64,000 nucleotides of DNA from Phycisphaerae bacterium (GCA_012729815.1 JAAYCJ010000133.1:3956-67955), one strand, 5' to 3'. Positions 11,571 through 37,027 are shown, numbered from the stretch's first letter. Notes: generated by a model not told the origin, from the sequence alone. Numbers and translations: made by a program.

Positions 11571-11599
11571 GGGTATTGCGGCTTTGGCGGAGGTTTTCA

Positions 11600-16380: not shown

Positions 16381-16402
16381 GTGGAGGTCCTTGAAGACGG
16401 GA

Positions 16403-18309: not shown

Positions 18310-18471
18310 ATCCTCCAAAAATGCGCATTATAGTCATAATTGTCAACATTAATGTCATATTCTTCGGGCAAGGAACTAGCGGTGGGACAGCCAACGGTAG
18401 AGCTATTGTGTTAACTGATGTGAATTCAGCTACTTATGCTGCGTTGCTGGGCCTGGTCGGGCCGGACCCGG

Positions 18472-19842: not shown

Positions 19843-21891
19843 ATGACGTTGCGGGCGGTGTTGTTGGGACTGCTGGGCGGGGCGGTCTTCTGCGGATTCA
19901 CCTATTTCAACGACTCGGTGATGCTCCAGACGATGCTGATCGGCAACCACATGCCGGTTTCGGCCTATGGCGGGCTGCTGCTTTTTGTCCTGGCGGCCAA
20001 TCCGGTGCTGTTCTGGCTTCACCGGCGGCTGGCGCTTTCGGGGCGCGAGCTGGCGGTGGTTCTGGCGTTGACGCTGGTCGCCTGCTGCATTCCGGGGTCG
20101 GGTCTGTTGCGGACGTTCACCACGAATTTGATGATGCCGCAGCACTACGCCCGCACGCAGCCGGGCTGGTCGGAGCAGGGGCTGCTGGAGATGTTGCCGG
20201 AGGTCATGCTGCCGGAGACGGCGGACGAGAAGGTGATCAATGGATTTGTAAGCGGGATGCGAAAGGGGACGCGGCACATCGGTCTGGACCAGGTGCCGTG
20301 GTCGGCTTGGCGGGATTCGCTGGGTTTCTGGCTGATTCTGATTCTGTCGTTGTGGGTGGGGCTGATCGGGCTGGCGTTGGTGGTTCATCGGCAGTGGTCG
20401 GACCACGAGCAGTTGCCATACCCGGTGGCCCGGTTCGCCGATTCGCTGCTGCCGGGTCAGGGGGGGATGTGGGGCGAGGTGTTGGGCAGTCGCCTGTTTT
20501 GGCTGGGGCTTTGCGCGGTGGCGGCGATTCACCTGTACAACTACGCTGCGTTCTGGTCTCCCGCCCACCTGGTTCCGATCCAGCTTCAGGTCGATATCCG
20601 TTCGCTGGCGGACCTGTTTCCGACGTTCAAGCTCGGTCTGGGCGGATTCGGCGGGCCTTATCTGGTCACGCCTCACCTGTATTTCATCGTGATCGGTTTT
20701 GCGTATCTGCTGGCGACGGACGTGTCGCTGTCGTTGGGGATCGGGCCGTACCTCTGGCCGTGGGTGTTGGGTTTGACCGCAGCGTCCGGCTATTCGCTGG
20801 CGGGCGGAGGGTATCTGTCGCTTCAGGCCGTGACGTTTCTGAATTTCGGCGCGTACGTGGGGCTGTTCCTGGTGCTGATCTACACCGGGCGGCACTACTA
20901 CAGCCACGTATTCCGCCGGGCGCTGCTGCTGCCTTCGGCGCAGGCGGTCGAGTCGCACTCGGTGTGGGGCGCTCGGGTATTTCTGGCGTGCCTGGCGGCG
21001 TTCGTGACCATGCTGGCGGCGGCCGGCCTGGACTGGCCGCTTGCGTTTCTGTATGCGGCGGGCGCGGTGGTCATCTACCTGGTGATGGGCCGGATCATCG
21101 CGGAGACGGGGATGTTCTTCATCCAGGCGTATTGCTTTCCGTGCGTGATTCTCTGGGGCGTGTTCGGGGCTGTGGCGCTGGGGCCGCAGGCGCTGCTGAT
21201 CCTGCTGGTCTTGACGGCGGTGCTGCTGGCCGATCCGCGGGAGACGCTGATGCCGTTTGCGATCAACTCGCTCAAGATCGTGGACCTTCGGCGGGTCAGC
21301 GTGGGTCGGACGGCCGGTTTGGCCGTCGTGGCGCTGGTGGTCGGGTTGGCGATCGCGGTTCCCACGACGCTGTACTTTCAGTATGACCGCGGGGCCAACA
21401 TGGCCGACGCATGGGCAACCCGCGCGGACCAACTGCCCGGCATGCCGTACAAGGAAGTGCTCAACGTCAAGCATCGTTTGGCCGCTCAGGGCGTTCTCGA
21501 ACGATCGGAAGCGGTTTCGGGCTGGTCGCGATTTGCGGAGATGGCGCCCGGCTGGCGGTACGTAGCCGTATTCGGCGTCGGGATGGCCCTGGTGCTGGTG
21601 ATGACGGCCGGTCGGCTGCGGGTTGCCCGCTGGCCGCTGCACCCGGTGATGTTTCTGGTGTGGAACAGCTATGGCGCGTGCAACTTCGCGTTTTCGTTTT
21701 TGGTCGGATGGTTCATCAAGAGCGCGATCACCCGGTACGGCGGAGCGGCGGTCTACCAGAAGGTCAAGCCGCTGATGTTCGGGCTGATCGCCGGTGAACT
21801 GCTGGGCGGGTTCGTGCCGGTGATCATCGGGGCGATCTGCTACCTGGTGACGGGCGAACCGCCGAGGCGGTTTTTTGTCCTGCCGCTATAG
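19843..21891 (+). CDS. polytopic membrane protein, OPT-superfamily-like (possibly DUF6785/DUF6784 type)
   Basis: 682 aa with at least 12 hydrophobic segments. It has an EQLPYP motif after a TM segment. Its C-terminal block WFIKSAITRYGGAAVYQKVKPLMFGLIAGELLGG is shared with the 30757-32766 product. Confidence 0.7.
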   Translation: MTLRAVLLGLLGGAVFCGFTYFNDSVMLQTMLIGNHMPVSAYGGLLLFVLAANPVLFWLHRRLALSGRELAVVLALTLVACCIPGSGLLRTFTTNLMMPQHYARTQPGWSEQGLLEMLPEVMLPETADEKVINGFVSGMRKGTRHIGLDQVPWSAWRDSLGFWLILILSLWVGLIGLALVVHRQWSDHEQLPYPVARFADSLLPGQGGMWGEVLGSRLFWLGLCAVAAIHLYNYAAFWSPAHLVPIQLQVDIRSLADLFPTFKLGLGGFGGPYLVTPHLYFIVIGFAYLLATDVSLSLGIGPYLWPWVLGLTAASGYSLAGGGYLSLQAVTFLNFGAYVGLFLVLIYTGRHYYSHVFRRALLLPSAQAVESHSVWGARVFLACLAAFVTMLAAAGLDWPLAFLYAAGAVVIYLVMGRIIAETGMFFIQAYCFPCVILWGVFGAVALGPQALLILLVLTAVLLADPRETLMPFAINSLKIVDLRRVSVGRTAGLAVVALVVGLAIAVPTTLYFQYDRGANMADAWATRADQLPGMPYKEVLNVKHRLAAQGVLERSEAVSGWSRFAEMAPGWRYVAVFGVGMALVLVMTAGRLRVARWPLHPVMFLVWNSYGACNFAFSFLVGWFIKSAITRYGGAAVYQKVKPLMFGLIAGELLGGFVPVIIGAICYLVTGEPPRRFFVLPL

Positions 21892-22026
21892 GCGGTGTAA
21901 AACGGTGGTCGCGAGGCAAGACGGTAGTGTATGATGATACCGGTGACGGCAGGCATACGATTGGTTGGACACTGGCATCCAGGACGGCCTTCACGCAGAC
22001 TGATGGCCGACGATCGGGCGGTGTGA

Positions 22027-22914
22027 ATGACGTTATGGACATGGCGGCATATTCGGATTGAGCTTCCCGACGACTGGGAGATGCTCCAGTTTTCGCGGAA
22101 GACGGACGTGGGCCGGTGCGGCTTCGCCGACCGGTATCAGTTTCGGTTGGAGCTGAGCTGGCGCAAGGTGATCGGTCCGCCGGACTACAACCGGATGCTC
22201 TCGGATTACCAAGCCAAGCTGGAGCGCGAGCGGGGGATGGAGAACAGCCGGCGAATCGCCACTGCCGGCTGGCAGGGGCTCGAGGGACGGATCGGGTCGC
22301 AGATGACAAGCCGGTTTGGATGGTACGCACCGACCGAGTCGCTGCTGCTCGAGGCGGTCTTTGTCTGGCCGCAGGACCGCGACAAGGGACTGGAACGGTT
22401 GGTGCTCGCCAGCATCGGCGAAGAGCCGGTCCGATCAGACGGTCTACGGCCGTGGCGGGCGTTTGGGATGAACGTGCTGGCTTCGGACGATCTGAGCCTT
22501 CAGGATTGCCAGGTCGAACCGGGTCTGGCGAAGCTGGTCTTCGGCCGGCCGAATTCCGAGAAGTTCCGCGAGACCTTCGAGCGTATCGGCATGGTCTCGC
22601 ACTGGCTGAATGGGACGGTGCGCGAGTGGCTGCTGGGCCGGCTTGAAGTCGAGGCGCGCGAGCCGCAGGCTGCTACGGACCGGATTGCCGATCACCAGAT
22701 TGAAACGGTATTGGTGGATTCGACGAACCGTCGAGGCGGTCGAAGCTGGTTCGGCAGGGGGGGCTGCTACCGGACGGCGGCGTGGATTTGTCCGACCGAC
22801 GGCCGTCTCTACCGGATTTCCGAGCGGCGGCCGACCGCCAGAACCTCCGACAATCTTCCCCTGGCCGGCGGCCGGCTCTGTTGCTGCAAAAGCTTGAGCG
22901 AGACTTATGGCTAA
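22027..22914 (+). CDS. hypothetical soluble protein (no recognisable domain)
   Basis: 295-aa ORF with no TM segment or signal peptide. Its last 8 nt overlap the start of the PqqD-like gene (ATGGCTAA), so the two are translationally coupled. Confidence 0.6.
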   Translation: MTLWTWRHIRIELPDDWEMLQFSRKTDVGRCGFADRYQFRLELSWRKVIGPPDYNRMLSDYQAKLERERGMENSRRIATAGWQGLEGRIGSQMTSRFGWYAPTESLLLEAVFVWPQDRDKGLERLVLASIGEEPVRSDGLRPWRAFGMNVLASDDLSLQDCQVEPGLAKLVFGRPNSEKFRETFERIGMVSHWLNGTVREWLLGRLEVEAREPQAATDRIADHQIETVLVDSTNRRGGRSWFGRGGCYRTAAWICPTDGRLYRISERRPTARTSDNLPLAGGRLCCCKSLSETYG

Positions 22915-23290
22915 AAGAAAAGTAACGGCACAGGAACCGGACCAGTCGTGGCAAAAGATGCTGCTGGCCCGGCCGGTGCGGAACGCAGCGGCCAAGGTGT
23001 CGGCCTGCAGCGACGGCTGCCTGCGGATCGCGATTCCCAACCTTCGGCCGTGGTATCTGTTTCCGCCGATTTCCTGGATGGTCCGGCCCGCGGCGAGCAA
23101 GTCCCTGGTGCTCGAAGGGCTGGGGGCGGAAGTATGGGATTTGTGCGACGGCCGTCGGACGGTTGAGGAGGTGACCGATTGCTTCGCCGCCCGCCATAGC
23201 CTGTCTTTTCACGAATCCCGCGTTTCGATCACCGGATATTTGCGTCTTTTGGTGCAGCGCGGTGCGTTGGCGATGGTAGAAGAGGCTTGA
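22907..23290 (+). CDS. PqqD-family (RiPP-recognition-element-like) small protein
   Basis: LVLEGLGAEVWDLCDGRRTVEEVTDCFAARHSLSFHESRVSITGYLRLLVQRGALAMV matches the PqqD winged-helix pattern (x-LN-x-G-x-IW-x-L-DG-x-T-x-EI ... L-x-x-G-L). Confidence 0.65.
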   Translation: MAKRKVTAQEPDQSWQKMLLARPVRNAAAKVSACSDGCLRIAIPNLRPWYLFPPISWMVRPAASKSLVLEGLGAEVWDLCDGRRTVEEVTDCFAARHSLSFHESRVSITGYLRLLVQRGALAMVEEA

Positions 23291-23519
23291 TGCGGTCAGC
23301 GACCGCTGCGGCGGTGAAGTCTGAGCAGTTGCAGTGATGTTTCGGTCCGGCCCCGTCAGAGGCAGCATGGCGGGCATTTAACCGGTTGCTCTCGAAGGAG
23401 TTGCGAGGTATGCTGGAGGGCCTGTCCGACCGTCGGACGAGGTGGATGGGCGACGCCGCAGGAGCGAAGGCCCCTGGTGCTCGGATAGGACACGCGACAC
23501 CGACAGGAACCAGAACTTA

Positions 23520-24992
23520 ATGAAGGTCATCGACATTCAGCAGCAGCCGACGATGGGGTTTTCTCGAACCCTTTCGATCACCATCATCGGGATTCGCTAT
23601 CGGCTGTTTCGCTCGCTGGTGACGGTGGTGGTCATTGCGGTGGCGGTGGCCTTTCTGATGAATATCGTAGGGGAGAGTCTGATCCGTAAATCGGTGCTGG
23701 AGAACAGCGCCGATCGCCTGCGCGAACTGCGGCACGCGGCGGTCTGGGCTGCGCGGCTTTCGGTGCCGGGCACAGCCGAGGACATCATTTTGAATCTGGG
23801 CAAGGCCGAGCCGGATTCTCCACTCTACCAGGAATCGCAGGTCCTGGCCGGATTCGACCCCGGCGAGATGCAGGCAGTTCACGAGCAGGTTTGCCGGGCG
23901 GCGGAGTACCTGACGTTCTTCGGCGAGCTGGACTACGGCCGGAGACGCCGGATGGTCGCCGGCGCCGAGGGTTCGGATATCTTCAGAAGCCTCCGTGAGA
24001 CCGGTCGGATGGAGCGGTTCGAGGACGCCCTGGCCGGCATGAAGTCGGTGCGGTTTCCGGGAACGATTGAGCAGTTCAGGGATTTCGTGGGTCAGTGGCC
24101 GGAGATCGAAGGCCGCGTTCAGCGGATTCGGGAGGGTCGTCGGCAGGCCATCCGGCAGGTGCGGGAGGTTCTGGATGGGCGTCCGGTGGTGGACGCGCTG
24201 ACCGACGCGACGGGTCAGTTCGGCCAGGCGGTCCGGGCGGCGGGTTTTCGACTCGGTGAGGATGAGGCCGGCGCGGTGGCCCGCGAGGCGCGGCGGATGG
24301 TGGACGTTCGCATTCTCGAGGACAGCGTGAACAAACCGGCGATACGCAAGGCGCTGTCATCCCGGCTGGACGTGCTGCCGGCGGACGTGACGGTTCAGAC
24401 GCTTTGGGATTTCGTGGGCAGCCGCGAGAACGCCGAGTGGTACCTGGCGAAGATGCGGGAGGGTGAACTGGACACGGCGGGCCTGACCGTCGAGCGGACA
24501 GTGGAACTGGCGGGCGTGGACGCTGAGTTCGCGAGCCTGGTGCGGGCTGAGCATCTGGGCGGCGACCTGAGCGGCGGATTTCTGGGCGTCGGCGAACGGA
24601 TGACCTGGCTGATGCTGGTCTCGATGCTGGTCTGCGTGGTCGGCATCGCCAACGCCATGCTGATGTCGGTGACGGAACGGTTTCGGGAAATCGCGACGCT
24701 CAAGTGCCTCGGGGCGCTGGACGGTTCGATCATGCTGATGTTCGTGCTCGAGGCGGCCCTGTTGGGCGTGGTGGGCGGCGTGATGGGAGCGGTCGGCGGC
24801 GTGCTGATCGCTTTGGGCCGGATGATCGGCTCGTTCGGATCATTGATGTTCGGCGCGACTCCGGCGGGCGACCTGACGGCGGCGGCGATTGCAGCCACGG
24901 TGGTGGGCGTGGTGCTGGCGGCGGTCGCGGCGGTCTATCCTTCGTTCAAGGCGGCGCGGCTTGCGCCGATGGAGGCGATGCGCATCGAGTAG
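23520..24992 (+). CDS. FtsX/MacB-type (type VII) ABC permease with large atypical loop
   Basis: The N-terminal TM is LFRSLVTVVVIAVAVAFLMNIV, followed by a charged loop of about 320 aa. The C-terminal FtsX block is MLMSVTERFREIATLKCLGA...AAVYPSFKAARLAPMEAMRIE. An alternative GTG start exists at 23442. Confidence 0.85.
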   Translation: MKVIDIQQQPTMGFSRTLSITIIGIRYRLFRSLVTVVVIAVAVAFLMNIVGESLIRKSVLENSADRLRELRHAAVWAARLSVPGTAEDIILNLGKAEPDSPLYQESQVLAGFDPGEMQAVHEQVCRAAEYLTFFGELDYGRRRRMVAGAEGSDIFRSLRETGRMERFEDALAGMKSVRFPGTIEQFRDFVGQWPEIEGRVQRIREGRRQAIRQVREVLDGRPVVDALTDATGQFGQAVRAAGFRLGEDEAGAVAREARRMVDVRILEDSVNKPAIRKALSSRLDVLPADVTVQTLWDFVGSRENAEWYLAKMREGELDTAGLTVERTVELAGVDAEFASLVRAEHLGGDLSGGFLGVGERMTWLMLVSMLVCVVGIANAMLMSVTERFREIATLKCLGALDGSIMLMFVLEAALLGVVGGVMGAVGGVLIALGRMIGSFGSLMFGATPAGDLTAAAIAATVVGVVLAAVAAVYPSFKAARLAPMEAMRIE

Positions 24993-25049
24993 CGAAACGG
25001 ATCCGGGGCCTCGGAGGGCTTCGGTCACCAAACCCAAGTGCGGTTGACG

Positions 25050-25895
25050 ATGGCGAAGAAAAACAAAGCAACCAGGACATCGAGCGAAAAGGGCGGAACG
25101 GCGCAGGTCGCGACTGTGGCCCAGACCCAGCCGCAACCGGCGGCCAGGTCCGGCGGCGATGAGCGGCGGGTCATCATCCGGGCGATCGCGTTAAAGAAGT
25201 CCTATATGCAGAAGGAGGTCGAGACGCAGGCCCTGCGAGGGGTCAACGTCGAGATCTACACCGGCGAGTTCATCTCGGTGATGGGGCCGTCGGGTTCAGG
25301 CAAGAGCACGTTTTTCAACATGATCGGGGCTCTGGACAGCCCGACCAGCGGGCGGGTGTTCATCGACGAGGTGGACGTGGCGCAGTTGACGGCGGTGGAG
25401 CTGGCGTTTCTGCGCTGCCGCAAGATCGGCTACATCTTTCAGAGCTACAACCTGATTCAGTACATGACGGCGTTGGAGAATGTGACCACGCCGATGGCGT
25501 TCGCCGGAGTCGGTCCGGACGAGGCGCGGGTTCGCGGCATGTCGCTGCTGGAGATCGTGGGCCTCAAGGAGCGGTGGTTCCATCGCCCGATCGAGATGTC
25601 CGGCGGCCAGCAGCAGCGGGTGGCGATCGCCCGGTCGATGGCCAACAACCCGAGCATTCTGCTGTGCGACGAGCCGACGGCCAACCTGGACCTGCACACC
25701 GGGCGGGAGATTCTCACCATTCTTCAGCGGCTGAACCGCGAGCGGGGCGTGACCATCATTTGCGCGACCCATGACCACCGGATGCTGGACATCTGCGACC
25801 GGCTGATGTGGATTCGCGACGGGCAGATCGAGCGGATCGCCCGGCGCGACGAGGTCCACATCGAGGTCGGAGCGATCGACGACGAAGAGCACTAG
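25050..25895 (+). CDS. ABC transporter ATP-binding protein (MacB/LolD class)
   Basis: Walker A is GPSGSGKST, the signature is [14 protein letters not shown], and Walker B is ILLCDEPTANLD. A low-complexity N-terminal tail of about 45 aa precedes the ATPase core. Confidence 0.9.
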   Translation: MAKKNKATRTSSEKGGTAQVATVAQTQPQPAARSGGDERRVIIRAIALKKSYMQKEVETQALRGVNVEIYTGEFISVMGPSGSGKSTFFNMIGALDSPTSGRVFIDEVDVAQLTAVELAFLRCRKIGYIFQSYNLIQYMTALENVTTPMAFAGVGPDEARVRGMSLLEIVGLKERWFHRPIEMSGGQQQRVAIARSMANNPSILLCDEPTANLDLHTGREILTILQRLNRERGVTIICATHDHRMLDICDRLMWIRDGQIERIARRDEVHIEVGAIDDEEH

Positions 25896-25900
25896 AGACC

Positions 25901-28900
25901 ATGCGGAAAACGACCAACACGAATGGGACCCTCTCGCGGAGCGCGGCGATTGCCGTTGCGATCGCGCTGTCTGTGATTCCGGTGGCGCGGGGGCGCGCGG
26001 ATGTGGCGCAGTTTCAGAAGGATTGCGCCGAGCTGACCGCCTCGCCCCATCGGCTGACCGGAACCAAGGAGTACCGTCAGGCGGCGGAATACGTTCGTGG
26101 GCGGCTTGAGGGGATCGGGGCCGACGCGGTGGTGGTCCAGGAATTTCCCGCGGCCCAGACGCGAACCAACCGCTGCGAGATTCAGATCGCCGGCGGCGAG
26201 GACGGCGGGACGCGGCGGCTGGAGCTGTTCGCGATCCGCCCGAACGGGATCGTGCCGCCGGTGACTCCGGAGGGCGGGATCACGGGGCCGATCCTCCACG
26301 CCGGGACCGGGCGGCCCGAGCACTACGGAACCCGCAGCCCGCGCGGGTGCATCGTCGTGCTCGACTACAACAGCGGCCGGGAGTGGCTGCGGGCGTTTCG
26401 GTTGGGGGCCAAGGCGGTGATCTTCGTCCGCGAGGGCGACCTGCGGGCCTCGGAGTCGCACGTGCTGTCCGCCGACACCAACCTGCTGCGGTTCTACTAT
26501 AACGGTTCGCGGCAGGACTTGCCCGAAGGGGCCAAGGCCACCATCCACAGCGAGGTGGTCTGGGAGCGGGTGGCCGGGCGCAATGTGTTCGGATTTTTCC
26601 GCGGGACCGACCCGCGGTTCGCGATGGGGGCTGATGAGGTGCTGGTGGCGGCGGCCAACCTGGACAGTTTTGGCGAGGCGCCGCAGATCAGTCCCGGCGC
26701 CCGCGGCGCGGCCAACTGCGCCGGGTTGCTCGCGTTCGCCGAGCACATCAAGACCAACCGCCCGAGGCGGCACGTGCTGGTCGCGTTTCTGGACGCCCAG
26801 GCCCGCGGGCACATGGGAAGCTGCGCGTTCTACCGGGCCTTGGACAAACGGCATGCGAAGGTGACCACCGAAGCCCGCCAAGGCTATCTGGATCGTGAGC
26901 GGAGTTTTCTGACCGCGATCGAAAAGGTGCTTGCCCAGGCCGAGCCCCTCCAGGCCGTTGCCCCGTCCGCGGTGCGTGGAGAACTGACCGAGCGGCTCGA
27001 GCGGAAGGCTGAGGAACACGCCTATGACCTGACCGACCGGCTGGCCGGGCTTCGCGAGCAGCGGCAGGCGCTTGAGAATGACTCGCCGAAGTACCAGGAA
27101 ATCCAGGCCCGGATCGACGAGGCGGAGCAGCGCAAGGACGAGTGGAACGACGTGCGCCGGGCTCTTCTGGATACCAAGGCGCCGGTGGCTCAGAACCTTC
27201 GCGATGAATTCGACCAGGTCTTCGACGAGGTCCGCGAGGACATCCGCATTCGGATGGTCCAACTCGACTTCGACGAGGGGGGTCTTGACGCCGACGTCCG
27301 GCTCAATGAGTTGATCGGCGACGACTGGATCTGCCTGCACACCTCGTTCCTGTTCGGCGACGCGACGGCCCGCTGGGGATTGCTGATCGGAGGCGACTCG
27401 TACTTCCATTCGGACAAGGATAACCCGGGCCTTTACAGCAGCGTTCAGCGGGACTTCCTGGCGGCCTGCGACGGCCTCAAGGCGGGCGGACGTGAGATTG
27501 GAAGTTTCGAGCGGGCCTCGGCCGACGGGATGCTGAGCGCTCCGCGGCTGCTGTTGACCGCGCCCTTTCTGATCCACAGCGGGGAGATCGCCGGGCGGAT
27601 GGGCATCTACAACCTGGCCCTGGGTACGGTCCAGGAGGACCTGTCGCGCGAGGGCACTCCGGACGACACGCTGGACCGGCTTGACCTGGCGCGGATGGCG
27701 AGCCAGATCGGGGAGGCTTCGGAACTGCTGGGGGCGGTGGCCAGCGAGGAGGGGCTCTCGCAGCACAGATCGGTGGCGCAGGAACGGGGATACATCTGGC
27801 CGCAATTCAGCGGCAACCGCGCCGAAGGGGCGATGGCAATGGGCAAGCCTCCGGGCAGCTCGATGCCGACCAAGCCGATGACCGGGGCGGTGGTCAAGCT
27901 GCCGCCTCAGCCGGGCGCCCGCTACATGTACCAACCCTGCAAATCGTACGGTTTTGACAACTTTCAGGTGATGCTGACCGACCAGAACGGCTGCTACGCC
28001 TTCGGTCCGATCATCGACCTGGCGCTGCTACCCAGCGGTATGGCCCTCATGTTCGATTCGCGCGGGCTTCCCACGTACGCCAGCACACAGGAGTCGGCCA
28101 TCGAGGCTCAGACGCGGCTGGAAATGTTCCCCTGCCGGTGGGGCCGGGTGCTGTTGCCGCCGCTGCTGGAGATCCTGGAGGCCAAGCCGCTGGACGGCAT
28201 GGGTAACAGCCTGCTCGATCCGTCCAAGTCCTTTTTCGCCACCTCCGACGGCGTGGTGTTCTGGTACTGCGAGGACAAGGTCAGATCGGTCAAGGTGTTC
28301 GGCGAGCGGTCGCAGGCCCTGTTCGTCAACGGTCCCGAGTCGCTGGAGGGGAACTACCGGGACCTGATCAAGGACGATCAGTACCTTGGCGACGGACTGC
28401 CCACCGACGACCCGTGGATGACGGTGGACGCGAGCCGGCGGTTTAGTTCGGACCTCTGGCGGCTCAACGAGGCGCGTCTGGCGGTGCTGCGGTCGCGGGA
28501 CATCATGAACAGTTCGATCGAGGAGTTGCACGGCCGCTCGGAAGACCTGATGACGGCGGCCGAGGGGACCGAGCCGATCGAGGTCGGCGAGGCCCTGGCC
28601 GCCTCGTGCGGCATGGCTGAGCTGCCGGTTTACGTCGATACGCGCAAGACGCTGGACGACCTGGTGCGGGCGGTGCTGGTGCTGCTGGCCCTGTCGGTGC
28701 CGTTCGCGTTCGCGTTGGAGCGGCTGCTGATCGGCTCGACCAACGTTTACCGGCAGATCCTGTGGTTCGTCTTCATCTTCACCTTGACGTTCCTGGTGCT
28801 GTTCTTCACGCACCCGGCGTTCGCGGTGTCCAAGACCCCGATCATCATCTTCCTGGGTTTCGCGGTGGTGGTGCTTTCGTCGCTGGTGATCTTCATCATC

Positions 28901-30727
28901 ATGCGCAAGTTCGAGGTGGAGCTGAAGGTGCTTCAGGGTTTGACCTCGACGGTGCACGCGGCCGACGTTTCGCGGTTCGGCACGATCATGGCGGCGATGG
29001 CGATGGGCATTTCGACCATGCGTCGGCGTCCGCTGCGGACGGCGCTGACCGCGGTGACGATTATCCTGCTGACCTTCACGATCCTGTGCTTTGCCTCGTT
29101 CGGAACGGAGAAGGGGATCATCACGCTGTTCGTGATGCCCACGCCGGGCTATTCGGGCGCGTTCATGCACCACGTGAACTGGCGCGAGATGAACCCGGAG
29201 GTCCAGGACGTGCTGATGGGGCGGTGGGGCAAGAGCGCCACCGTGTGTCGGCGCTATTGGCTTTCTCCGGAGGCTGAGAACCAGGTGACCGGGCCGCTGG
29301 TCTCGCGCGAGGACGGGACCGAGGTGGTGGCGTTGCGGGGCGTGTTGGGGCTTGACGATCGCGAGTTGGCGCACCGCGAGGATTTGACCGAGCTGCTGGG
29401 CGTCCAGGAGATGGGCGAGCGGGTCTGGATGACGCAGGCGGTGGCCGAGCGGCTGAAGGTCGCGCCGGGCGATCACGTTCTGATCGGCGGACAGCGGCTG
29501 GAGGTGGGCAAGCTGCTGGACCCGGTCAAGGTGTCGATCACCCGCGACATGGACGACAGCGATATTCTGCCCGTCGACCTGGTGGAGCTCAAGAGCACCA
29601 CCACGGAGGATATGGACGAGATGGTCAAGGAAGACCCGCTGATCATCCAGTACCGCCAGAACTGGTCCACGCTGCCGATCGACTCAGTGGTGATTACGGG
29701 GAACGCAGCGGCGATGCGGATGGGGGCGTCGCTGCGGGCGATTTCGCTGTACACCGCGAACCCGAAGGCGGCGATCGAGGCGGCTGAGGACCTGGCGCGG
29801 ATCATGCCGATCCCGGTCAGCGCCACCCGGCAGGACGGGGTCTATCGGCACCTGCTGGGTCCGGTGGTCGAGGCGAGCGGGGCCAAGGACCTGCTGTTCC
29901 CGATCCTGCTGGGCGGTCTGGTGATCTTCGGGACGATGCTGGGATCGGTCGCCGACCGCGAGAAGGAAATCTACACTTTCAGCGCCCTGGGTCTGGCGCC
30001 GCCGCACGTGGCGGGCCTGTTCTTTGCCGAGGCGATGGTCTATTCGGTGATCGGCGGGCTTGGCGGGTACATGCTGGCCCAGGGGTCGCTCAAGATTCTC
30101 TCGGTGCTGGCCGGCTATGGTCTGGTCCGCGTGCCGGAGATGAACTACTCGTCGACCAACGCGGTGGTGACCATCCTGATCGTAATGTGCACGGTGCTGA
30201 TCTCGGCGATCTACCCGGCGATCAAGGCGTCTCGCAGCGCCAACCCGGGCATCCTGCGTTCGTGGCGGCTGCCGAGCCCGGACGGCGACGTCTTTGACAT
30301 TGTGTTTCCGTTCACCGTGTCGGAATACGACATTACCGGCGTGGTCAGCTTCCTCAAAGAACACTTCGACAACTACAGCGACACCGGGCTGGGCGTATTC
30401 ATGGCGCGGGGCACCGCACTGGTGCGCCGCAACGGCAGCCTGGGTTTGAGCAGCGAGGTGGCGCTGGCTCCGTTCGACCTGGGAGTCACCCAGCGGTTCG
30501 AGCTGTCCAGTGCGCCCAGCGAGATTCAGGGGATCGACGAGGTCAAGATCCGGCTCGTCCGCAAGTCGGGCCAGCCGAAGGACTGGCGGCGGCTCAACAA
30601 GGTGCTGCTCGACGACCTGCGCAAGCAGTTCCTGATCTGGCGGTCGCTGCCTCACGAGACGATGGAGATGTACCGCCACCGGGTGCTGGCGGAGTTGGGA
30701 ACAAGCGGCGGCGCGGCGAGGAGTTGA
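25901..30727 (+). CDS. 1608-aa fusion: signal peptide, degenerate M28/PA peptidase-like domain, coiled coil, 3 TM, FtsX-type permease module, cytoplasmic C-terminal domain
   Basis: ATG 25901 lies 5 nt after the ATPase stop. An M28-like scaffold is present (GRNVFGFFRG, VLVAAANLDSFG, SPGARGAANCAG, VAFLDAQARGHMGS). The coiled coil has heptad-like character (LERKAEEHAYDLTDRLAGLREQRQALEND...). The FtsX block is VADREKEIYTFSALGL...AIYPAIKASRSANPG. Confidence 0.85.
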   Translation: MRKTTNTNGTLSRSAAIAVAIALSVIPVARGRADVAQFQKDCAELTASPHRLTGTKEYRQAAEYVRGRLEGIGADAVVVQEFPAAQTRTNRCEIQIAGGEDGGTRRLELFAIRPNGIVPPVTPEGGITGPILHAGTGRPEHYGTRSPRGCIVVLDYNSGREWLRAFRLGAKAVIFVREGDLRASESHVLSADTNLLRFYYNGSRQDLPEGAKATIHSEVVWERVAGRNVFGFFRGTDPRFAMGADEVLVAAANLDSFGEAPQISPGARGAANCAGLLAFAEHIKTNRPRRHVLVAFLDAQARGHMGSCAFYRALDKRHAKVTTEARQGYLDRERSFLTAIEKVLAQAEPLQAVAPSAVRGELTERLERKAEEHAYDLTDRLAGLREQRQALENDSPKYQEIQARIDEAEQRKDEWNDVRRALLDTKAPVAQNLRDEFDQVFDEVREDIRIRMVQLDFDEGGLDADVRLNELIGDDWICLHTSFLFGDATARWGLLIGGDSYFHSDKDNPGLYSSVQRDFLAACDGLKAGGREIGSFERASADGMLSAPRLLLTAPFLIHSGEIAGRMGIYNLALGTVQEDLSREGTPDDTLDRLDLARMASQIGEASELLGAVASEEGLSQHRSVAQERGYIWPQFSGNRAEGAMAMGKPPGSSMPTKPMTGAVVKLPPQPGARYMYQPCKSYGFDNFQVMLTDQNGCYAFGPIIDLALLPSGMALMFDSRGLPTYASTQESAIEAQTRLEMFPCRWGRVLLPPLLEILEAKPLDGMGNSLLDPSKSFFATSDGVVFWYCEDKVRSVKVFGERSQALFVNGPESLEGNYRDLIKDDQYLGDGLPTDDPWMTVDASRRFSSDLWRLNEARLAVLRSRDIMNSSIEELHGRSEDLMTAAEGTEPIEVGEALAASCGMAELPVYVDTRKTLDDLVRAVLVLLALSVPFAFALERLLIGSTNVYRQILWFVFIFTLTFLVLFFTHPAFAVSKTPIIIFLGFAVVVLSSLVIFIIMRKFEVELKVLQGLTSTVHAADVSRFGTIMAAMAMGISTMRRRPLRTALTAVTIILLTFTILCFASFGTEKGIITLFVMPTPGYSGAFMHHVNWREMNPEVQDVLMGRWGKSATVCRRYWLSPEAENQVTGPLVSREDGTEVVALRGVLGLDDRELAHREDLTELLGVQEMGERVWMTQAVAERLKVAPGDHVLIGGQRLEVGKLLDPVKVSITRDMDDSDILPVDLVELKSTTTEDMDEMVKEDPLIIQYRQNWSTLPIDSVVITGNAAAMRMGASLRAISLYTANPKAAIEAAEDLARIMPIPVSATRQDGVYRHLLGPVVEASGAKDLLFPILLGGLVIFGTMLGSVADREKEIYTFSALGLAPPHVAGLFFAEAMVYSVIGGLGGYMLAQGSLKILSVLAGYGLVRVPEMNYSSTNAVVTILIVMCTVLISAIYPAIKASRSANPGILRSWRLPSPDGDVFDIVFPFTVSEYDITGVVSFLKEHFDNYSDTGLGVFMARGTALVRRNGSLGLSSEVALAPFDLGVTQRFELSSAPSEIQGIDEVKIRLVRKSGQPKDWRRLNKVLLDDLRKQFLIWRSLPHETMEMYRHRVLAELGTSGGAARS

Positions 30728-30756
30728 CGGCGCGATTGCAGTGAGGCCTTCAGGCA

Positions 30757-32766
30757 ATGGCAAAGGAACGCATCGATAGGGAACTGGAAGAGTTTCGCGG
30801 GGTCATGCAGGCCCCGTCCACCTTCGAGGACGGCTTTAACTGGTCGTCGTTCCTCGGCGCGTTGTTCATCGGGTTCCTGATGGTGCCCGGTGCGATGTAC
30901 ATGGCCCTGCTGGCCGGGCAGGGGATCGGGCCGGCCGCCCAGTGGGTGACGGTGATCCTGTTCATCGAGGTCGCGCGTCGGGCCCACCGGCAGCTCAAAG
31001 GGGCTGAGGTGTTCGTGCTGTTCTTCATGGCCGGGGCGATGATGCTCAGCGTGGGCATGGGCGGCCAGATTCAGGGTCTCTTGTGGAATCAGTTCTACGT
31101 TCGCAGCGACTCGGCGATCAACATGGGCATCGCTGAATTGCTGCCCACCTGGTTCGCTCCCGCAGCGGATTCGCCGTCATACGCGTCGCGGACGTTTTTC
31201 CACTGGGACTGGCTGCCCGCGATCGGATTGTTGATTTTCGGGGCGTTTTTCGGGCAGCTTAACAACATGGTGCTGGGTTACGGGTTGTTCCGGCTGACCA
31301 GCGACATTGAAAAGCTGCCGTTCCCGATGGCCCCGATCGGGGCCCAGGGCATTCTGGCCCTGGCTGAGGACATTGACGAGAAGGCTGAGAAGGGATCCGA
31401 GGGCAACTGGCGATGGCGGGTGTTCGCGATCGGTGGGGCGTTGGGGTTGGCGTTCGGCGCGGTCTACCTGCTGCTTCCGACGCTGACCGGCGCGCTGACC
31501 GGCGAGCCGATCATGATCTTCCCGATCCCGTGGAGCGATTTTACGACCAAGACGGCCGACTGGCTGCCCGCGGTGGCGACCGGCATGAGCTGGGACTTCG
31601 GCCAGCTCATCACCGGCATGGTGCTGCCGTTCTTCGGGATGCTCGGCAGCTTCATCGCCCTGGTGGCGACGTTCGTGGTCAACCCGATCCTGCACCACCC
31701 GGACATCCGGATTCTCCACTCGTGGACGCGGGACCAAGGGACGATCGAGACGCTGTTCGTCAACAACGTGGACTTCTACTTCAGCTTCGGGATCGGCATT
31801 TCCATCGCGATCGCGGGGGCCGGTTTCTGGGAAGTCTACAAAGGGATCAAGCGACGCCGTCGCGAGGCCCGGGAACAGGGCGTCTCGGTCCGACAAGCCT
31901 CCGCCGTGCCGAAGGGCCGCGGCGACATCAAGGGGTGGCTGATCGTCGCGTCATACATCATCGTGACCATGGCGTACATCATCGTCTCGGGCTTCCTGAT
32001 CGACTGGCATCCGTGGGTGATGGTGGTGCTGTTCTTCCTCGGTTTCGTCTACACGCCGCTGATCAGCTACGTGACCGCCCGTCTTGAGGGCATGGTCGGG
32101 CAGGTGGTCGAAATTCCGATGATCCGCGAGGCCAGCCTGATTCTCAGCGGGTACCAGGGCGTGGCGGTATGGTTCATACCGATTCCGATGGCCAACTACG
32201 GGTCGATGACGGTCTTCTACCGCCAGTGCGAGTTGACCGGGACCAAGTTCACCAGCATCTGGAAGGCCCAGATCATCCTCTACCCGATCATCCTGCTGAC
32301 CTCGATCTTCTTCGCCAACTTCATCTGGGGTCTGGCTGAGGTGCCTTCGGCGGTGTATCCCTTCGCCCAGGAATGGTGGGAACTCGACGCCGCCAATCGC
32401 AGCATCATGTACTCCTCGACGCTGGGCGATTTCTCGATCTTCGAGGAGGCGTTCAAGGGTTGGTACGTGGCGGCCGGGGCGGGATTTGGCTTGAGTCTCT
32501 TCGCCGTGATGACGTTCTTCGGAACGCCGGTGTTCTTCATCTACGGCTTTATCCGCGGCCTGGGCCAGGCGATGCCGCACGCCATCATTCCGCAGTTCAT
32601 CGGGGCGTTGATCGGACGCTACTATTTCCAGCGGAAGCTGGGACTCAAGTGGCGGCAGTACATCCCGGTGGTGGCGGCGGGTTTCTTCTGCGGGCAGGGG
32701 CTGATCACCACCGTCGGCGTGGGCATCACGTTCCTCAGCAAGGCCGTCATTCAAATGCCGTTCTAG
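30757..32766 (+). CDS. polytopic membrane protein, OPT-superfamily-like, paralogous to 19843-21891
   Basis: 669 aa with many hydrophobic segments. It has an EKLPFP motif. Its C-terminal block QFIGALIGRYYFQRKLGLKWRQYIPVVAAGFFCGQGL parallels the other copy. Confidence 0.75.
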   Translation: MAKERIDRELEEFRGVMQAPSTFEDGFNWSSFLGALFIGFLMVPGAMYMALLAGQGIGPAAQWVTVILFIEVARRAHRQLKGAEVFVLFFMAGAMMLSVGMGGQIQGLLWNQFYVRSDSAINMGIAELLPTWFAPAADSPSYASRTFFHWDWLPAIGLLIFGAFFGQLNNMVLGYGLFRLTSDIEKLPFPMAPIGAQGILALAEDIDEKAEKGSEGNWRWRVFAIGGALGLAFGAVYLLLPTLTGALTGEPIMIFPIPWSDFTTKTADWLPAVATGMSWDFGQLITGMVLPFFGMLGSFIALVATFVVNPILHHPDIRILHSWTRDQGTIETLFVNNVDFYFSFGIGISIAIAGAGFWEVYKGIKRRRREAREQGVSVRQASAVPKGRGDIKGWLIVASYIIVTMAYIIVSGFLIDWHPWVMVVLFFLGFVYTPLISYVTARLEGMVGQVVEIPMIREASLILSGYQGVAVWFIPIPMANYGSMTVFYRQCELTGTKFTSIWKAQIILYPIILLTSIFFANFIWGLAEVPSAVYPFAQEWWELDAANRSIMYSSTLGDFSIFEEAFKGWYVAAGAGFGLSLFAVMTFFGTPVFFIYGFIRGLGQAMPHAIIPQFIGALIGRYYFQRKLGLKWRQYIPVVAAGFFCGQGLITTVGVGITFLSKAVIQMPF

Positions 32767-32778
32767 ACGGATAGCGTA

Positions 32779-33504
32779 ATGAGCGACGAAAATCTGATCG
32801 AAATCCGGAACCTGAACAAGACCTTCAACCTCGGCAAGATCGTGGTCCGAGCCCTGAAGGACGTGAGCCTCGACATCTTTCGCGGCGAGTACCTCTCGAT
32901 CATGGGGCCTTCCGGTTCCGGCAAGAGCACGCTGTTCAACATGATCGGGGCCCTGGATCGTCCCAGCAGCGGACAGGTTACGGTGGCTGGGGTGGACCTG
33001 ACCAAGCTCACCAGCCGGCAACTGGCTTACTTCCGCGGCAACCACATCGGCTACATCTTCCAGACGTTCAACCTGATCCCCGCCTATAACGCCATCGACA
33101 ACGTGGCGCTGCCCATGATCTTCAGCGGCAGGAGTTATGACGAGGCGGTCGAGCGGGCCAAGGAGGTCCTGGCCCAGGTGGGCCTCGGCCATCGCGTCAC
33201 CCACCGGCCGGACGAGCTGTCGGGCGGCCAGCAGCAGCGGGTGGCCATCGCCCGGGCCCTGGCCAATCAGCCGGCCATCATCCTCGCCGACGAGCCCACC
33301 GGCAACCTCGACCTGCACACCGGCGAGGAGATCATCGGCCTGCTCAAGCAGCTCAGCCGCGAGACCGGCGTGACCGTCATCACCGCCACGCACGACCATA
33401 AGATGCTCGACATCTCCGATCGCATCCTCTGGATCAAGGACGGAGCGATCGACCGCCTCGAACGCCGCGAAGATGTCAACATCCGCCTCGGCACGGTGAA
33501 ATGA
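32779..33504 (+). CDS. ABC transporter ATP-binding protein (MacB/LolD class), paralogue of 25050-25895
   Basis: It carries [23 protein letters not shown] and [12 protein letters not shown]. Its tail [31 protein letters not shown] is very close to HDHRMLDICDRLMWIRDGQIERIARRDEVHI in the first ATPase. Confidence 0.9.
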
Positions 33505-33544: not shown

Positions 33545-33579
33545 GCCGGACCGGCCCAACGACGGCGGACCGGTCCGGC
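33545..33579. terminator. 10-bp GC stem-loop between convergent genes (candidate bidirectional terminator)
   Basis: GCCGGACCGG (33545-33554) and CCGGTCCGGC (33570-33579) are exact reverse complements around a 15-nt loop. On the minus strand the stem is followed by UUCUCUCU. There is no U-tract on the plus strand. Confidence 0.3.
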
Positions 33580-33599: not shown

Positions 33600-34757
33600 T
33601 CAGTACCTGAACACCGCGGCGATGCGGTGGCCGTTGTTCAGCTTGCCCGGATCCACCGCGTAGACCGTTCCGTTGTTCAGAAGCGTGTACATGGCGGCCA
33701 GGTCGGCCAGGTCTTCGTCGCCGCGGGCCGGCTTCTCGTGCAGTTCGACGGTTCCGGCCTGCGGGTCGAAGCGTCCCCACTGTTGATGGTTCGGGGCCAG
33801 GAACAGGTACTGGTTTCTGGCCTGTAGGGCGGCCGGCAGCACGGTGCTGATGTCGGTCGAGGCCCGTTCGGTGCCGGCCAGCCGGCCGTACTGGCCGATG
33901 GCGTCATCGAGTCCCTGGGTGAAGATCGGCTCGACGATCTGCCAGGCCCGCTCGTGAAGCTGTCTGGCCGAGAGCTTGTCGGGACTGCCCGCGATCCCTT
34001 CCGGCACCAGGTGCGGGTACGAGTTGGCCTCGCGGTAGATCGCCTGCAGGTATTCGACTCCGGCGATCACCAGCGGGGCCTTGTCCGTCGCGAACATCTT
34101 CTGCAGGCCGCGGTCGATCGCCTGGACGTACCGCAGCAGATCCTTCTTGTGCTTGGCGTCGTCGATGCCGCTGCCGTGGCCGTGGTATATAGCGTCTCCA
34201 GTGCCCGCGCGGGCTTGCGGAGCGGTGTGGAACTGGAGCTGCTTTTCCGCCACGTCGAACCGCAGCACCTCGGCCAGGCTGGCCGGCAGTTCGTCGGCCC
34301 GCAGTTCACGAACGCTGTAGCGGGTGCCTTGCAGGATCCGCGTCCCGTTCTGGCTCATCGCCAGCACGTAGAACCGCCCGTCGCCGGTGAACAGCGGCAT
34401 CAGGGGCTTAAGGTGCAGGTGCGAACCGGCAATCACGACCTCGCGAAAACTCAGCGGCAACCGGTAGTGCCGATAGAAGCCCGGACAGACGAAGATGGCC
34501 AGCCCGTCGCTCTGGTGCCGCCAGAAGATGCTGTCGAGCAACAGGTCCGAGGCGGGCTTCAGCAGCGATCCGGCCTTCTCGGCCGCCATGCCCATTTCCT
34601 GAAGCTGTCCCTCCGCCCGTCGCAGCAGATTCTTCAGGCGGATCGGGTCCTCCTGCGTCTCCTGCCCCGCCTCATGCGTCGGCATGTAGATTGAGACGCA
34701 CGGAGATTCGGCCTGCTCGATCAGTGTCTTGAGTTCGTCGATCTGCAACAGATTCAT
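33600..34757 (-). CDS. bacterial archaeo-eukaryotic release-factor-like (baeRF-family-like) protein
   Basis: The N-terminus LKTLIEQAESPCVSIYMPTHEAGQETQEDPIRLKNLLRRAEGQL matches my memory of the baeRF-type family signature. The 385-aa length fits eRF1 middle plus C domains. No GGQ motif is present. The assignment is from memory and was not searched. Confidence 0.55.
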   Translation of the reverse strand: MNLLQIDELKTLIEQAESPCVSIYMPTHEAGQETQEDPIRLKNLLRRAEGQLQEMGMAAEKAGSLLKPASDLLLDSIFWRHQSDGLAIFVCPGFYRHYRLPLSFREVVIAGSHLHLKPLMPLFTGDGRFYVLAMSQNGTRILQGTRYSVRELRADELPASLAEVLRFDVAEKQLQFHTAPQARAGTGDAIYHGHGSGIDDAKHKKDLLRYVQAIDRGLQKMFATDKAPLVIAGVEYLQAIYREANSYPHLVPEGIAGSPDKLSARQLHERAWQIVEPIFTQGLDDAIGQYGRLAGTERASTDISTVLPAALQARNQYLFLAPNHQQWGRFDPQAGTVELHEKPARGDEDLADLAAMYTLLNNGTVYAVDPGKLNNGHRIAAVFRY

Positions 34758-35148
34758 GGTATGACCCCTCGAAAAGATGGATTAACCGGTCTTTGAGCAA
34801 AGACCTTTCGATACCATACCGTCTGGCGCGTCCGATGTGTACCGTACCATTCCCCACGACACCAATTATATCCGATGTGGACGCCGTCTTGCAAGCGAAT
34901 GACCCACGGCAATCGCATTCGTCGTCTGCGGACGGGTCGCGGGTCAAGTGCCTGTTATTGAATTTCAGTGCCACCCTTTCGCCGGCCATCGATACGCCGC
35001 AGGAGGGACGCGGGAATGTGCGGTTCCCGTAGACGCCCAAGCCGTTCTCCGAATCCGGAACGTCGGATGCGAGTTGCTTGAGATTCCACCTCAGACGGCT
35101 AAGAATTGGGCGTGGAGGTGAAGTCCGTACTCTGAAAGGGGGCCTTCC

Positions 35149-35583: not shown

Positions 35584-35661
35584 CCGGCCGAGTTGGGCAA
35601 AAGCATCTCGGACCAAACGTGCAGCCAAACGGCGACGCGGACCGTTGACGATGTGGTGCGT

Positions 35662-36822: not shown

Positions 36823-36973
36823 GGCGTTCCTCCCGCTTCTCGAAAGGCAGCTTGGCCCCCTTGAAAATCATCAGCGTAACGCGATCCCCATTAACACAAT
36901 ACGCCAGGCGCAGCCAAAAAGCAAGACAAACCCCACATCGCTGCGGTCCGGCGGCCGCGAAACGACTTTTTCC

Positions 36974-37002
36974 TTGCATTCCGTTTCCGTTGGCATTAAT
37001 AC
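36974..37002 (+). promoter_or_regulatory. sigma70-like promoter candidate for hsp20 (TTGCAT-N17-TAATAC)
   Basis: TTGCAT lies at 36974-36979, followed by a 17-nt spacer and TAATAC at 36997-37002. A strong SD, AAGAGGAAGGAG (37009-37020), precedes ATG 37028. Confidence 0.35.
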
Positions 37003-37027
37003 ATATTTAAGAGGAAGGAGCAAGCCT

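Follow-up and report, generated by a model that had tools for sequence, protein, structure and literature searches.

A conserved gene cluster uniting FtsX-fold permeases, ABC ATPases and an OPT-like permease very probably represents a functional unit of a new type

Of the ATP-binding cassette (ABC) systems classified as type VII only a handful are understood, and the discovery of each has opened a new envelope process. These systems perform mechanical work in the periplasm without any substrate crossing the membrane, and each of those described in Escherichia coli, FtsEX-EnvC, LolCDE-LolA, MacAB-TolC and YbbAP-TesA, is defined by its periplasmic partner (PMC12646458). Here we analyze a locus from a 64,000-nucleotide stretch of Phycisphaerae bacterium DNA (GCA_012729815.1 JAAYCJ010000133.1:3956-67955), referred to below as the window, in which eight co-directional open reading frames (ORFs) on the + strand, named g1 to g8 in their order, span positions 19843-33504 (Table 1). 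By the features of its permeases and nucleotide-binding domains (NBDs) the cluster is predicted to belong to the type VII ABC (FtsX/MacB-fold) superfamily: g4 and g6 each contain an FtsX module of four transmembrane (TM) helices with a large domain between TM1 and TM2, and the NBDs of g5 and g8 are of the LolD/MacB/FtsE type. Its obligate core is a pentad made up of the FtsX-fold proteins g4 and g6, the ATPases g5 and g8 and the OPT-superfamily protein g7; a cytoplasmic adaptor pair, g2 and g3, nearly always accompanies this core, and the DUF6785 protein g1 often does. We consider it highly probable that the cluster is a single functional unit, conserved and of a new type; that it forms one self-contained inner-membrane machine operating by the whole of the mechanism proposed further below is a more tentative suggestion, to which we would give somewhat less than even weight.

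The existence of such a unit is suggested by its conservation. Scanning an alignment of g6 over 185,579 genomes, one per species, identified a g6 relative in at least 303 of them, the search being motif-based and the count therefore a lower bound. We inspected 80 loci selected by g6 from this set, which come from Planctomycetota, Verrucomicrobiota (including Opitutales), Kiritimatiellia, Lentisphaeria/Victivallales and Sumerlaeia and include one from a cultured organism, Oligosphaera ethanolica DSM 24202; an Armatimonadota metagenome-assembled genome (MAG), found separately, has a gene order identical to that of the window. When the eight window proteins were placed on these loci by tblastn, g5, g6 and g7 were present in all 46 loci with enough flanking sequence, g4 and g8 in 45, g3 in 40, g2 in 37 and g1 in 31. 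The order g4-g8 is near-invariant in these 46 loci, the commonest overall arrangements being g2-g3-g4-g5-g6-g7-g8 (11 loci), g1-g2-...-g8 as in the window (10) and g2-g3-g1-g4-...-g8 (7), and even in locus L062, where the order is rearranged, the set is still together. The reciprocal search gave the same picture: starting from 296 metagenome relatives of g7, of which 80 loci were kept and 55 were testable, g6 was found directly upstream in 55/55 and an ABC gene downstream in 54/55. Median gaps across the loci are as short as -4 nt (g2 to g3 and g3 to g4), 17 nt (g6 to g7) and 29 nt (g7 to g8), and identity to the window proteins across phyla reaches 77-87% for g5, 67-80% for g8, 57-71% for g7 and 42-59% for g6. 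Conservation of gene order had been named as a test in a first-pass annotation of this DNA, and the order is indeed kept. In one MAG (L035:3-6090) a second, diverged core pentad, arranged g6'-g7'-g4'-ABC1'-ABC2', lies directly upstream of the main cluster; its g6' and g7' are 35% and 40% identical to their counterparts, ABC1' is 60% identical to g5 and ABC2' 60% identical to g8, and its g4' is shorter (426 aa). Each of these ATPases is closest to its own type, and the copy shows that duplication and divergence have affected the five genes as a set.

These observations bear on the simplest alternative, in which two or three independent transporters (g4-g5, g6-g8 and the carriers g7 and g1) are adjacent through a common pathway or regulon only. 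The proposal does describe g1, which is clearly independent, being facultative, mobile and often found alone elsewhere, and it can draw on the complete motifs in both ATPases, each of which could work as a homodimer. It is nevertheless difficult to reconcile with an adjacency of g6, g7 and g8 that is strict both ways, with a pentad that is duplicated and rearranged as a set, and with a conservation of g7 and the ATPases that far exceeds that of ordinary transporters and suggests many fixed protein contacts; we thus regard it as decidedly improbable. The locus had also been read as a duplicated unit of FtsX protein, ATPase and OPT-like protein. This reading is at best weakly supported. The ATPases alone are clear paralogues (55% identity over 240 aa, tail included); the FtsX modules of g6 and g4 share 27% identity over 121 aa, and a relationship of g1 and g7 is barely detectable. 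Moreover, the two halves of the cluster are not equivalent, because g7 is obligate (46/46) whereas g1 is facultative (31/46), mobile and also occurs alone elsewhere.

An all-versus-all comparison of 1,544 ORFs from the g6- and g1-selected loci L003-L084 revealed no extra partner family in more than five loci. In the flanks of the 80 loci we found no conserved membrane-fusion protein (MFP), TolC or other outer-membrane factor, LolA, EnvC, hydrolase or maturase of ribosomally synthesized and post-translationally modified peptides (RiPPs), nor any conserved partner gene of the EnvC/PcsB/CwlO coiled-coil type, in agreement with the earlier statement that the partners defining the known type VII systems are absent. 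Small ORFs of the PF05635 family ('23S rRNA intervening sequence protein', a four-helix bundle) sit between cluster genes in five loci, their sites including L004:13614-14045 (between the FtsX permease and its ATPase), L007:7344-7877, L016:16617-17006 and L033:8531-9028. A 674-aa MurJ-like gene (lipid II flippase/MOP superfamily, E 1e-22) lies directly upstream of g2 at L026:4043-6067, with similar genes in L027, L030 and L040; these loci belong to close relatives among rumen Victivallales, and the neighbor is a weak hint of an envelope link.

The permease g4 has a predicted topology of the MacB type in which the FtsX region is recognized and the outer domain is not. Its orthologues are about 490 aa long and all 20 examined match FtsX, whereas MacB_PCD is matched by none of the 20 and not by g6 either (Pfam). 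Both ATPases carry canonical Walker A, signature (SGGQ), Walker B-Glu and H-loop motifs and are thus predicted to be catalytically competent, so that a degenerate ATP site cannot serve as a test for a heterodimer. The permease and the two ATPases had been correctly named in the first-pass annotation, ABC_tran being matched by both g5 and g8, which had in addition been credited with a distinctive C-terminal tail. The tail is indeed shared, but the bulk of it (THDH..L...DR..WI.DG.I) corresponds to the H-loop and C-terminal strands of ordinary LolD/MacB-type NBDs, leaving only about 15 further residues that are special.

The best NCBIfam models for the two NBDs are LolD, MacB, FtsE and DevA, and every curated equivalog cutoff is missed: no cluster protein reached the cutoff for LolCDE, MacB, FtsEX, DevA/C, DarD or YbbA. 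The shortfall is considerable, with 40-234 bits against 966 for the MacB model (NF007826), 41 against 362 for LolC/LolE (TIGR02212), 217-244 against 307.75 for LolD (TIGR02211), 198-220 against 264.85 for FtsE (TIGR02673) and 22-24 against 225-250 for the FtsX models. The claim that the locus fits no described ABC system survived each test applied here.

The most elaborate member of the cluster is g6. Its predicted plan consists of an N-terminal signal or anchor, a pseudo-M28/PA domain, a beta-rich domain, a helical stalk, three TM helices, the 4-TM FtsX module and a cytoplasmic C-terminal domain; about 890 aa are extracytoplasmic before the first of the three TM helices, a conserved cytoplasmic loop separates these helices from the FtsX module, and the topology parity derived from hydropathy is consistent. 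More than 219 homologues are at least 48% identical over about 1600 aa. An AlphaFold2 (AF2) model of residues 1-940 (mean predicted local distance difference test score, pLDDT, 91.7) places the beta-rich domain and helical stalk after the M28/PA fold, and the four helices of the insertion in that fold (323-344, 357-389, 396-423 and 431-472) are modeled with pLDDT mostly above 80. Foldseek matches the ectodomain to 2ek8 (E 2e-17) and also to BSAP, PaAP, GCPII and the transferrin receptor (TfR), and a profile search against the PDB returns 2ek8 (E 7e-10), nicastrin (9e-6) and TfR (4e-4). Pfam does not detect M28 in the window copy; the assignment rests on these fold and profile matches and on PF04389 (M28), present in 41 of 120 g6 homologues among the matches listed. 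The FtsX module finds the MacB-like permease 5xu1, MacB, LolF and YtrF among PDB sequences.

In a residue-level alignment of the ectodomain, read at the first His, the bridging Asp and the EE positions, the motifs of active M28 enzymes are replaced: HHDS by aNLDs, GAnDdASG by GARGAANC and AEEnG by nQArG. The first His is N in the window protein and H, N, P or A among orthologues, the bridging-Asp site is an invariant Gly in GARGAAN, the catalytic EE has become Q-A, and R268 and A270 are invariant. By these substitutions the M28/PA domain is predicted to be a catalytically dead pseudo-peptidase, which would most simply be explained as a binding platform. The description of g6 as an M28-like/FtsX fusion consequently holds for its folds, with the qualification that the peptidase residues are gone.

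This ectodomain invites comparison with cell division. EnvC consists of a coiled coil and a dead LytM domain and activates amidases. By analogy, ATP could toggle the g6 ectodomain, which would then activate or recruit a periplasmic hydrolase encoded elsewhere, while the OPT-like permease would recycle the released peptides. A dead peptidase-fold domain joined to a long helical insertion and an FtsX module forms a formal parallel to EnvC bound to FtsX (PMC7668044), FtsE is among the best NBD models, and a MurJ-like gene lies upstream in a few Victivallales loci. However, the FtsE and FtsX models are far from their cutoffs, no hydrolase or division gene is conserved beside the cluster, the M28 fold is unrelated to LytM/M23, and g6, in a scan that sets a lower bound, was detected in some but not all members of its phyla, a surprising pattern if the cluster served a core function in division. 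Such an envelope switch is in our judgment quite unlikely.

The C-terminal half of g6 is widely distributed, being matched by 1189 clusters (50% identity) at E<=1e-30. Of these 1189, the best 150 representatives nearly all span the whole core and the C-terminal domain, the proteins being about 1,450-2,100 aa long, and the divergent and long members still show M28 plus FtsX or FtsX alone. The C-terminal domain is thus retained in nearly all of those 150, and also in the L035 paralogue; its mean column identity across orthologues is 80%, and a PDB profile search with it returned no match. Residues 923-1493 match the PADLOC model PDLC01991, named 'CARF_m8--CARF_LolE_TM', with E 1.9e-50 (orthologues, E 1e-48 to 1e-56), and PDLC01990 matches g6 with E 1.5e-23; the 7-TM core has thus been catalogued before under another label. 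What is shared is the stalk, the 3 TM helices and the FtsX 4-TM core, and a common plan of ectodomain, 7-TM core and cytoplasmic domain is suggested by a variant model that begins with a beta-galactosidase. Taken at face value, the label would make g6 a membrane effector of anti-phage signaling. Yet only the TM core matches: profile positions ~600-810, the CARF part, find no counterpart in g6, and the C-terminal 169 aa alone give no PADLOC match at E<=10. Furthermore, the other cluster proteins scanned (all but g5 and g8) have no PADLOC match apart from a weak one (E 1e-8) of residues 392-506, in the g4 FtsX region, to the same models; the conserved neighborhood holds neither a cyclase nor CRISPR or other defence genes, and the conservation is of a housekeeping kind. 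We regard a role in defence as already largely refuted and very improbable indeed.

The remaining obligate component, g7, scores only 11.2 bits on the OPT profile PF03169 in the window copy (gathering score 25.8, E 0.14), although the alignment is collinear over 470 residues (181-651). Among its orthologues, 15 of 20 match OPT over nearly the full length (best 1.3e-16), and the orthologue in L085 has a strong precomputed OPT match; we therefore take g7 to be a divergent member of the OPT superfamily, so that its earlier description as OPT-like is upheld by the orthologues rather than by the window copy itself. The protein carries the motif E.LPFPMAP.GAQG, which appears to resemble an OPT-type motif.

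The same designation had been given to g1, and here Pfam does not support it: the OPT profile is matched by none of 22 g1 relatives even at E<=1 (Pfam), the product being a DUF6785 plus DUF6784 protein with about 14 hydrophobic segments. Membership of g1 in the OPT family was accordingly set aside, since comparing its profile with that of g7 also gave no more than a weak link. The motifs said to be shared by the two polytopic proteins can be found in a collinear region around SD.E.LP[FY]P, but the similarity is weak (BLASTP E 0.028, hhalign probability 17%) and any relatedness appears barely detectable. Homologues of g1, about 50% identical, occur in the Planctomycetes-Verrucomicrobia-Chlamydiae (PVC) group, Sumerlaeia, Armatimonadota and Chitinivibrionales, and within the cluster the gene takes varying positions. 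Stand-alone DUF6785/DUF6784 homologues with about 50% identity to g1 and no cluster are encoded at L001:10001-12022, L086:10001-12022 and L087:10001-12043, one of them amid sulfatases and a PL8 lyase and the others in unrelated contexts; the family thus also exists independently of the cluster, as a membrane protein encoded by itself. Upstream of g1, the window (2643-4778 and 10785-18318) contains carbohydrate-related genes, among them a SASA sialate-esterase-like gene, a DUF1559/N-methyl gene (10785-11570), a DUF6259 gene, a gene for a 918-aa CBM_4_9 protein and one for a GntR regulator with a periplasmic-binding fold. With its DUF1559/N-methyl gene the genome looks planctomycete-like. It is conceivable that g1 might be co-regulated with the carbohydrate-related genes rather than, or besides, with g2-g8.

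On the cytoplasmic side, g2 has no Pfam or NCBIfam match, no hydrophobic segment by hydropathy and no useful sequence match among solved structures. Its AF2 model, built from 50 homologues, reaches a pLDDT of 93, and the nearest structures by Foldseek (E 2e-4 to 1e-2, TM-score about 0.3) are BT_1490, the immunity proteins TplEi/Tli4 of the type VI secretion system (T6SS; two-domain, full length), PsbP, DcrB and Eag chaperones, folds that are generic protein- or peptide-binding scaffolds. Of 96 homologues none is named and none has a Pfam domain except P0290, a g2-g3 fusion in which the domain is PqqD. Residues C31, C255, C286 and C287, the last two forming a CC pair near the C-terminus, are nearly invariant among the 50 homologues and may form a metal or redox site. 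The neighboring g3, already termed PqqD-like, passes the PF05402 gathering score, and an alignment of 20 orthologues reveals a conserved winged-helix motif, LCDG.RTVE..D.FA....L.FHEAR...YL..LV.RG. Because the two reading frames overlap in 43 of 53 loci, by 4 nt, and are fused in some genomes (418 aa in L004, 426 aa in L014 and 481 aa in P0290), g2 and g3 very probably act jointly in the cytoplasm.

A domain of the PqqD or RiPP recognition element (RRE) type raises the question of peptide export: g3 together with g2 could deliver a cytoplasmic precursor for export, as for a RiPP or bacteriocin, or the ABC modules could protect the producer. The NBDs score well, though below cutoff, on DarD (darobactin export) and bacteriocin-export ABC models, and in its fold g2 is similar to immunity proteins of the T6SS and to Eag chaperones. 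However, no RiPP precursor gene and no maturase (radical-SAM enzyme, cyclase or protease) is present in the window cluster or conserved in or beside the cluster in the 80 loci, and a conserved peptide gene could not have escaped notice in gaps of such short length. A uniform architecture with 50-85% identity across phyla is likewise unlike sporadic, fast-evolving RiPP clusters. The transport direction does not fit this proposal either. Cargo from the cytoplasm is not translocated by type VII ABC proteins (PMC12646458). Characterized OPT proteins, for their part, are importers. Taken together, these points leave us giving peptide export or immunity little credence.

How, then, could the unit work? 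We propose that g4 plus g5 and g6 plus g8 would act as type VII ABC mechanotransducers, possibly as a single g4:g6/g5:g8 heteromer analogous to LolC:LolE, in which the binding and hydrolysis of ATP in the cytoplasm would move the extracytoplasmic domains. The dead M28/PA ectodomain of g6, with its coiled-coil insertion, would serve as a built-in periplasmic partner, there to capture a peptide-containing ligand, or to extract it, on the outer side of the inner membrane. This ligand would then be passed to g7, and sometimes also to g1, as the transmembrane pathway that type VII ABC proteins lack, and the g2-g3 pair would bind a peptide segment on the cytoplasmic side, be it cargo or a regulatory tail belonging to the machine itself. 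We infer the physical complex, the stoichiometry of the heteromer, the peptide substrate and the direction of import: import because OPT proteins are importers, and the peptide theme because OPT, the M28/PA fold and the RRE are all peptide-themed modules in their characterized relatives.

Several considerations weigh against this mechanism. The complex is a proposal drawn from computation, on sequences and single-protein models, and the canonical motifs of both ATPases do not force a heterodimer, two homodimeric modules being equally possible. To our knowledge there is no precedent for a partnership between ABC and OPT proteins, and the window g7 barely scores on the OPT profile and does not reach any OPT structure when compared by sequence with solved structures. 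RRE domains normally serve RiPP biosynthesis, of which the cluster shows no sign. A lipid, a glycan or a glycopeptide would be just as possible a substrate, some of the neighbors being carbohydrate-related, and the high identity across phyla could in part stem from horizontal transfer.

A bolder version of the proposed mechanism would have g4:g6 with g5:g8 docked to g7, gating or energizing the OPT permease directly in a hybrid of primary and secondary transport, with the RRE/Mog1 adaptor receiving a peptide-like substrate that comes from the periplasm or is embedded in the membrane. We consider this hybrid unlikely, if by no means negligible. Were it true, the type VII ABC systems would gain a fifth class, distinct in architecture and widespread in PVC, Sumerlaeota and Armatimonadota, and g7 would be the first OPT-family protein to act as a subunit of an ABC machine, with ATP driving capture, extraction and translocation.

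The locus lies on one strand, as described before, and is bounded by genes on the - strand; the ORF map and a coding-type GC content at third codon positions (0.73-0.89) bear out the co-directional block. Nine genes had been counted, although the list given with that count itself contained eight, and eight is the correct number: the 135-nt and 229-nt gaps hold only short unconserved ORFs and gave no Rfam match at E<=0.1. With the g4 ATG at 23520, preferred because orthologues are about 490 aa long (a GTG at 23442 is a possible alternative), and the g5 ATG at 25050, the spacing is 135 nt between g1 and g2, an 8-nt overlap of g2 and g3, 229 nt between g3 and g4, 57 nt between g4 and g5, 5 nt between g5 and g6, 29 nt between g6 and g7 and 12 nt between g7 and g8, exactly the junction lengths first reported. 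Consensus scans of the region for internal terminators and promoters did not exceed shuffled expectation. Where g8 and the baeRF gene converge, a GC-rich hairpin lies between them and is probably the end of the transcription unit, a suggestive reading only, as the total number of terminator-like sites in the region is not above that of shuffles. On the whole, the initial observation was real, is partly confirmed and needed minor corrections, and its interpretation is partly supported.

Table 1. Features of the cluster and its borders, with coordinates counted from the first nucleotide of the window.
Feature	Position	Strand	Basis or remark
g1, 682-aa polytopic membrane protein, DUF6785 + DUF6784	19843..21891	+	Pfam E 3e-81 (DUF6785), E 3e-21 (DUF6784)
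g2, 295-aa predicted cytoplasmic protein, tandem Mog1p/PsbP-like alpha/beta fold	22027..22914	+	AF2 model and Foldseek
g3, 127-aa PqqD-like protein (RRE-type winged helix)	22907..23290	+	Pfam PqqD PF05402 E 4e-7, 30.8 bits (gathering score 23.4)
g4, 490-aa FtsX-type permease: TM1, ~310-aa extracytoplasmic domain, TM2-4	23520..24992	+	Pfam FtsX E 1e-15, hydropathy
g5, ABC ATPase 1, LolD/MacB/FtsE-like NBD	25050..25895	+	ABC_tran E 3e-31; LolD model 216.7 bits (cutoff 307.75)
g6, 1608-aa fusion protein	25901..30727	+	Pfam, PDB profile search, hydropathy, AF2, Foldseek
g6 residues ~35-620, predicted dead M28 aminopeptidase fold containing a PA domain and interrupted by helical insertion	26003..27760	+	Foldseek and profile search
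g6 residues 323-472, four long helices, coiled-coil-like insertion in M28-like domain	26867..27316	+	AF2 secondary structure
g6 residues 921-999, three extra TM helices ahead of FtsX module	28661..28897	+	hydropathy
g6 residues 1049-1441, FtsX/MacB-type 4-TM module with ~260-aa extracytoplasmic domain	29045..30223	+	Pfam FtsX E 6e-10
g6 residues 1446-1608, cytoplasmic C-terminal domain, no known family	30236..30724	+	orthologue alignment
g7, 669-aa divergent OPT-superfamily permease	30757..32766	+	OPT PF03169 matches in orthologues
g8, ABC ATPase 2, paralogue of g5	32779..33504	+	ABC_tran E 6e-36; LolD model 243.7 bits (cutoff 307.75)
Metallophosphoesterase gene	18472-19554	-	flanks the cluster on the g1 side
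14-bp GC-rich hairpin	33545-33579		terminator-like scan; between convergent g8 and baeRF
baeRF gene	33600-34757	-	flanks the cluster on the g8 side, convergent with g8

Elsewhere in the window, the region downstream of the cluster (33600-40013) encodes, besides the baeRF protein (bacterial eRF1-like, family 7/3), a DUF2267 protein (+), a CBS-domain-containing site-2 protease of family M50 (-) and a protease resembling LonC/LonB (+), and may be a proteostasis or ribosome-rescue neighborhood. It is followed at 41578-50234 (+) by a surface-polysaccharide cluster with a WecA-like GT4 protein, a WecG/TagA transferase, a Wzy_C O-antigen-ligase-like protein and a 940-aa FHA plus AAA_31 (BY-kinase/ParA-like) protein. 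An Fpg/Nei DNA glycosylase ORF at 8752-9960 (-) has an N-terminal extension of about 135 aa ahead of the catalytic domain; the N-terminal Pro being what this enzyme ordinarily works with, translation probably begins further inside, or else the reading frame has been over-extended.

In the host phyla of the cluster (PVC, Sumerlaeota and Armatimonadota), little is understood of how the envelope works and how nutrients are taken up. Solving the cluster could reveal what DUF6785/DUF6784 and the OPT proteins of bacteria do, could show a role of RRE domains outside RiPP biosynthesis, and could test the coupling of mechanotransducing ABC modules to a secondary-carrier fold; experiments are within reach, since a cultured organism, Oligosphaera ethanolica DSM 24202, carries it.

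Full-text searches of the literature yielded no description of this cluster, nor did we find a curated family for it, in line with the initial impression that the combination is undescribed; its place is thus best seen against the systems that it resembles in part. One of these is LolCDE, with which the cluster shares two different FtsX-fold permeases and LolD-like ATPases, LolD being the best NBD model for both g5 and g8; LolF and LolC-type chains are among the PDB matches of g6, and extraction from the outer leaflet offers a plausible working analogy. Unlike LolCDE, however, the cluster is without LolA or LolB, has no MacB_PCD/Porter-Sabre domain detected in g4 and encodes two distinct ATPases instead of one, and it adds the 3 TM helices, ~890-aa ectodomain and C-terminal domain of g6 as well as an OPT-like subunit and the PqqD pair. 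With FtsEX-EnvC it has in common a type VII module combined with a periplasmic element made of coiled coil and dead peptidase, which in g6 is fused in cis; the dead domain is M28/PA and not LytM, there is no division context, and g7, g1, g2, g3 and a second permease/ATPase pair come in addition. MacAB-TolC and DevBCA-HgdD likewise combine an FtsX-fold permease bearing a large outer domain with a MacB/DevA-like NBD, yet the cluster has no conserved MFP or outer-membrane factor, its NBDs are not fused to the permease, and MacB_PCD is not detected. From YbbAP-TesA the cluster differs in that its partner is fused and catalytically dead, its TM helices number 3+4 and not 10, OPT and PqqD proteins are present, and the YbbA model stays below cutoff.

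The individual modules, too, can be set against their families. Characterized OPT proteins act alone as proton-coupled carriers, whereas the g7 family, which matches the OPT/YSL profile over nearly its full length even though the window copy falls below the gathering score, is strictly flanked by an FtsX fusion and an ABC ATPase and shows unusual conservation. The g6 ectodomain shares the M28 and PA folds of TfR, nicastrin and GCPII and, as in TfR and nicastrin, has lost its metal ligands and catalytic Glu; unlike these proteins it is bacterial, is fused to an ABC-type permease and contains a 150-aa helical insertion. The PqqD score and winged-helix motif of g3 recall RiPP recognition elements, but no precursor or maturase accompanies it, and its partner, in some genomes its fusion partner, is a tandem Mog1/PsbP-like protein. 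What is new here is therefore a pseudo-peptidase receptor domain carried in cis, an obligate OPT-superfamily permease and a cytoplasmic PqqD/Mog1-like pair, a set of partners that is without known precedent among the type VII ABC systems.

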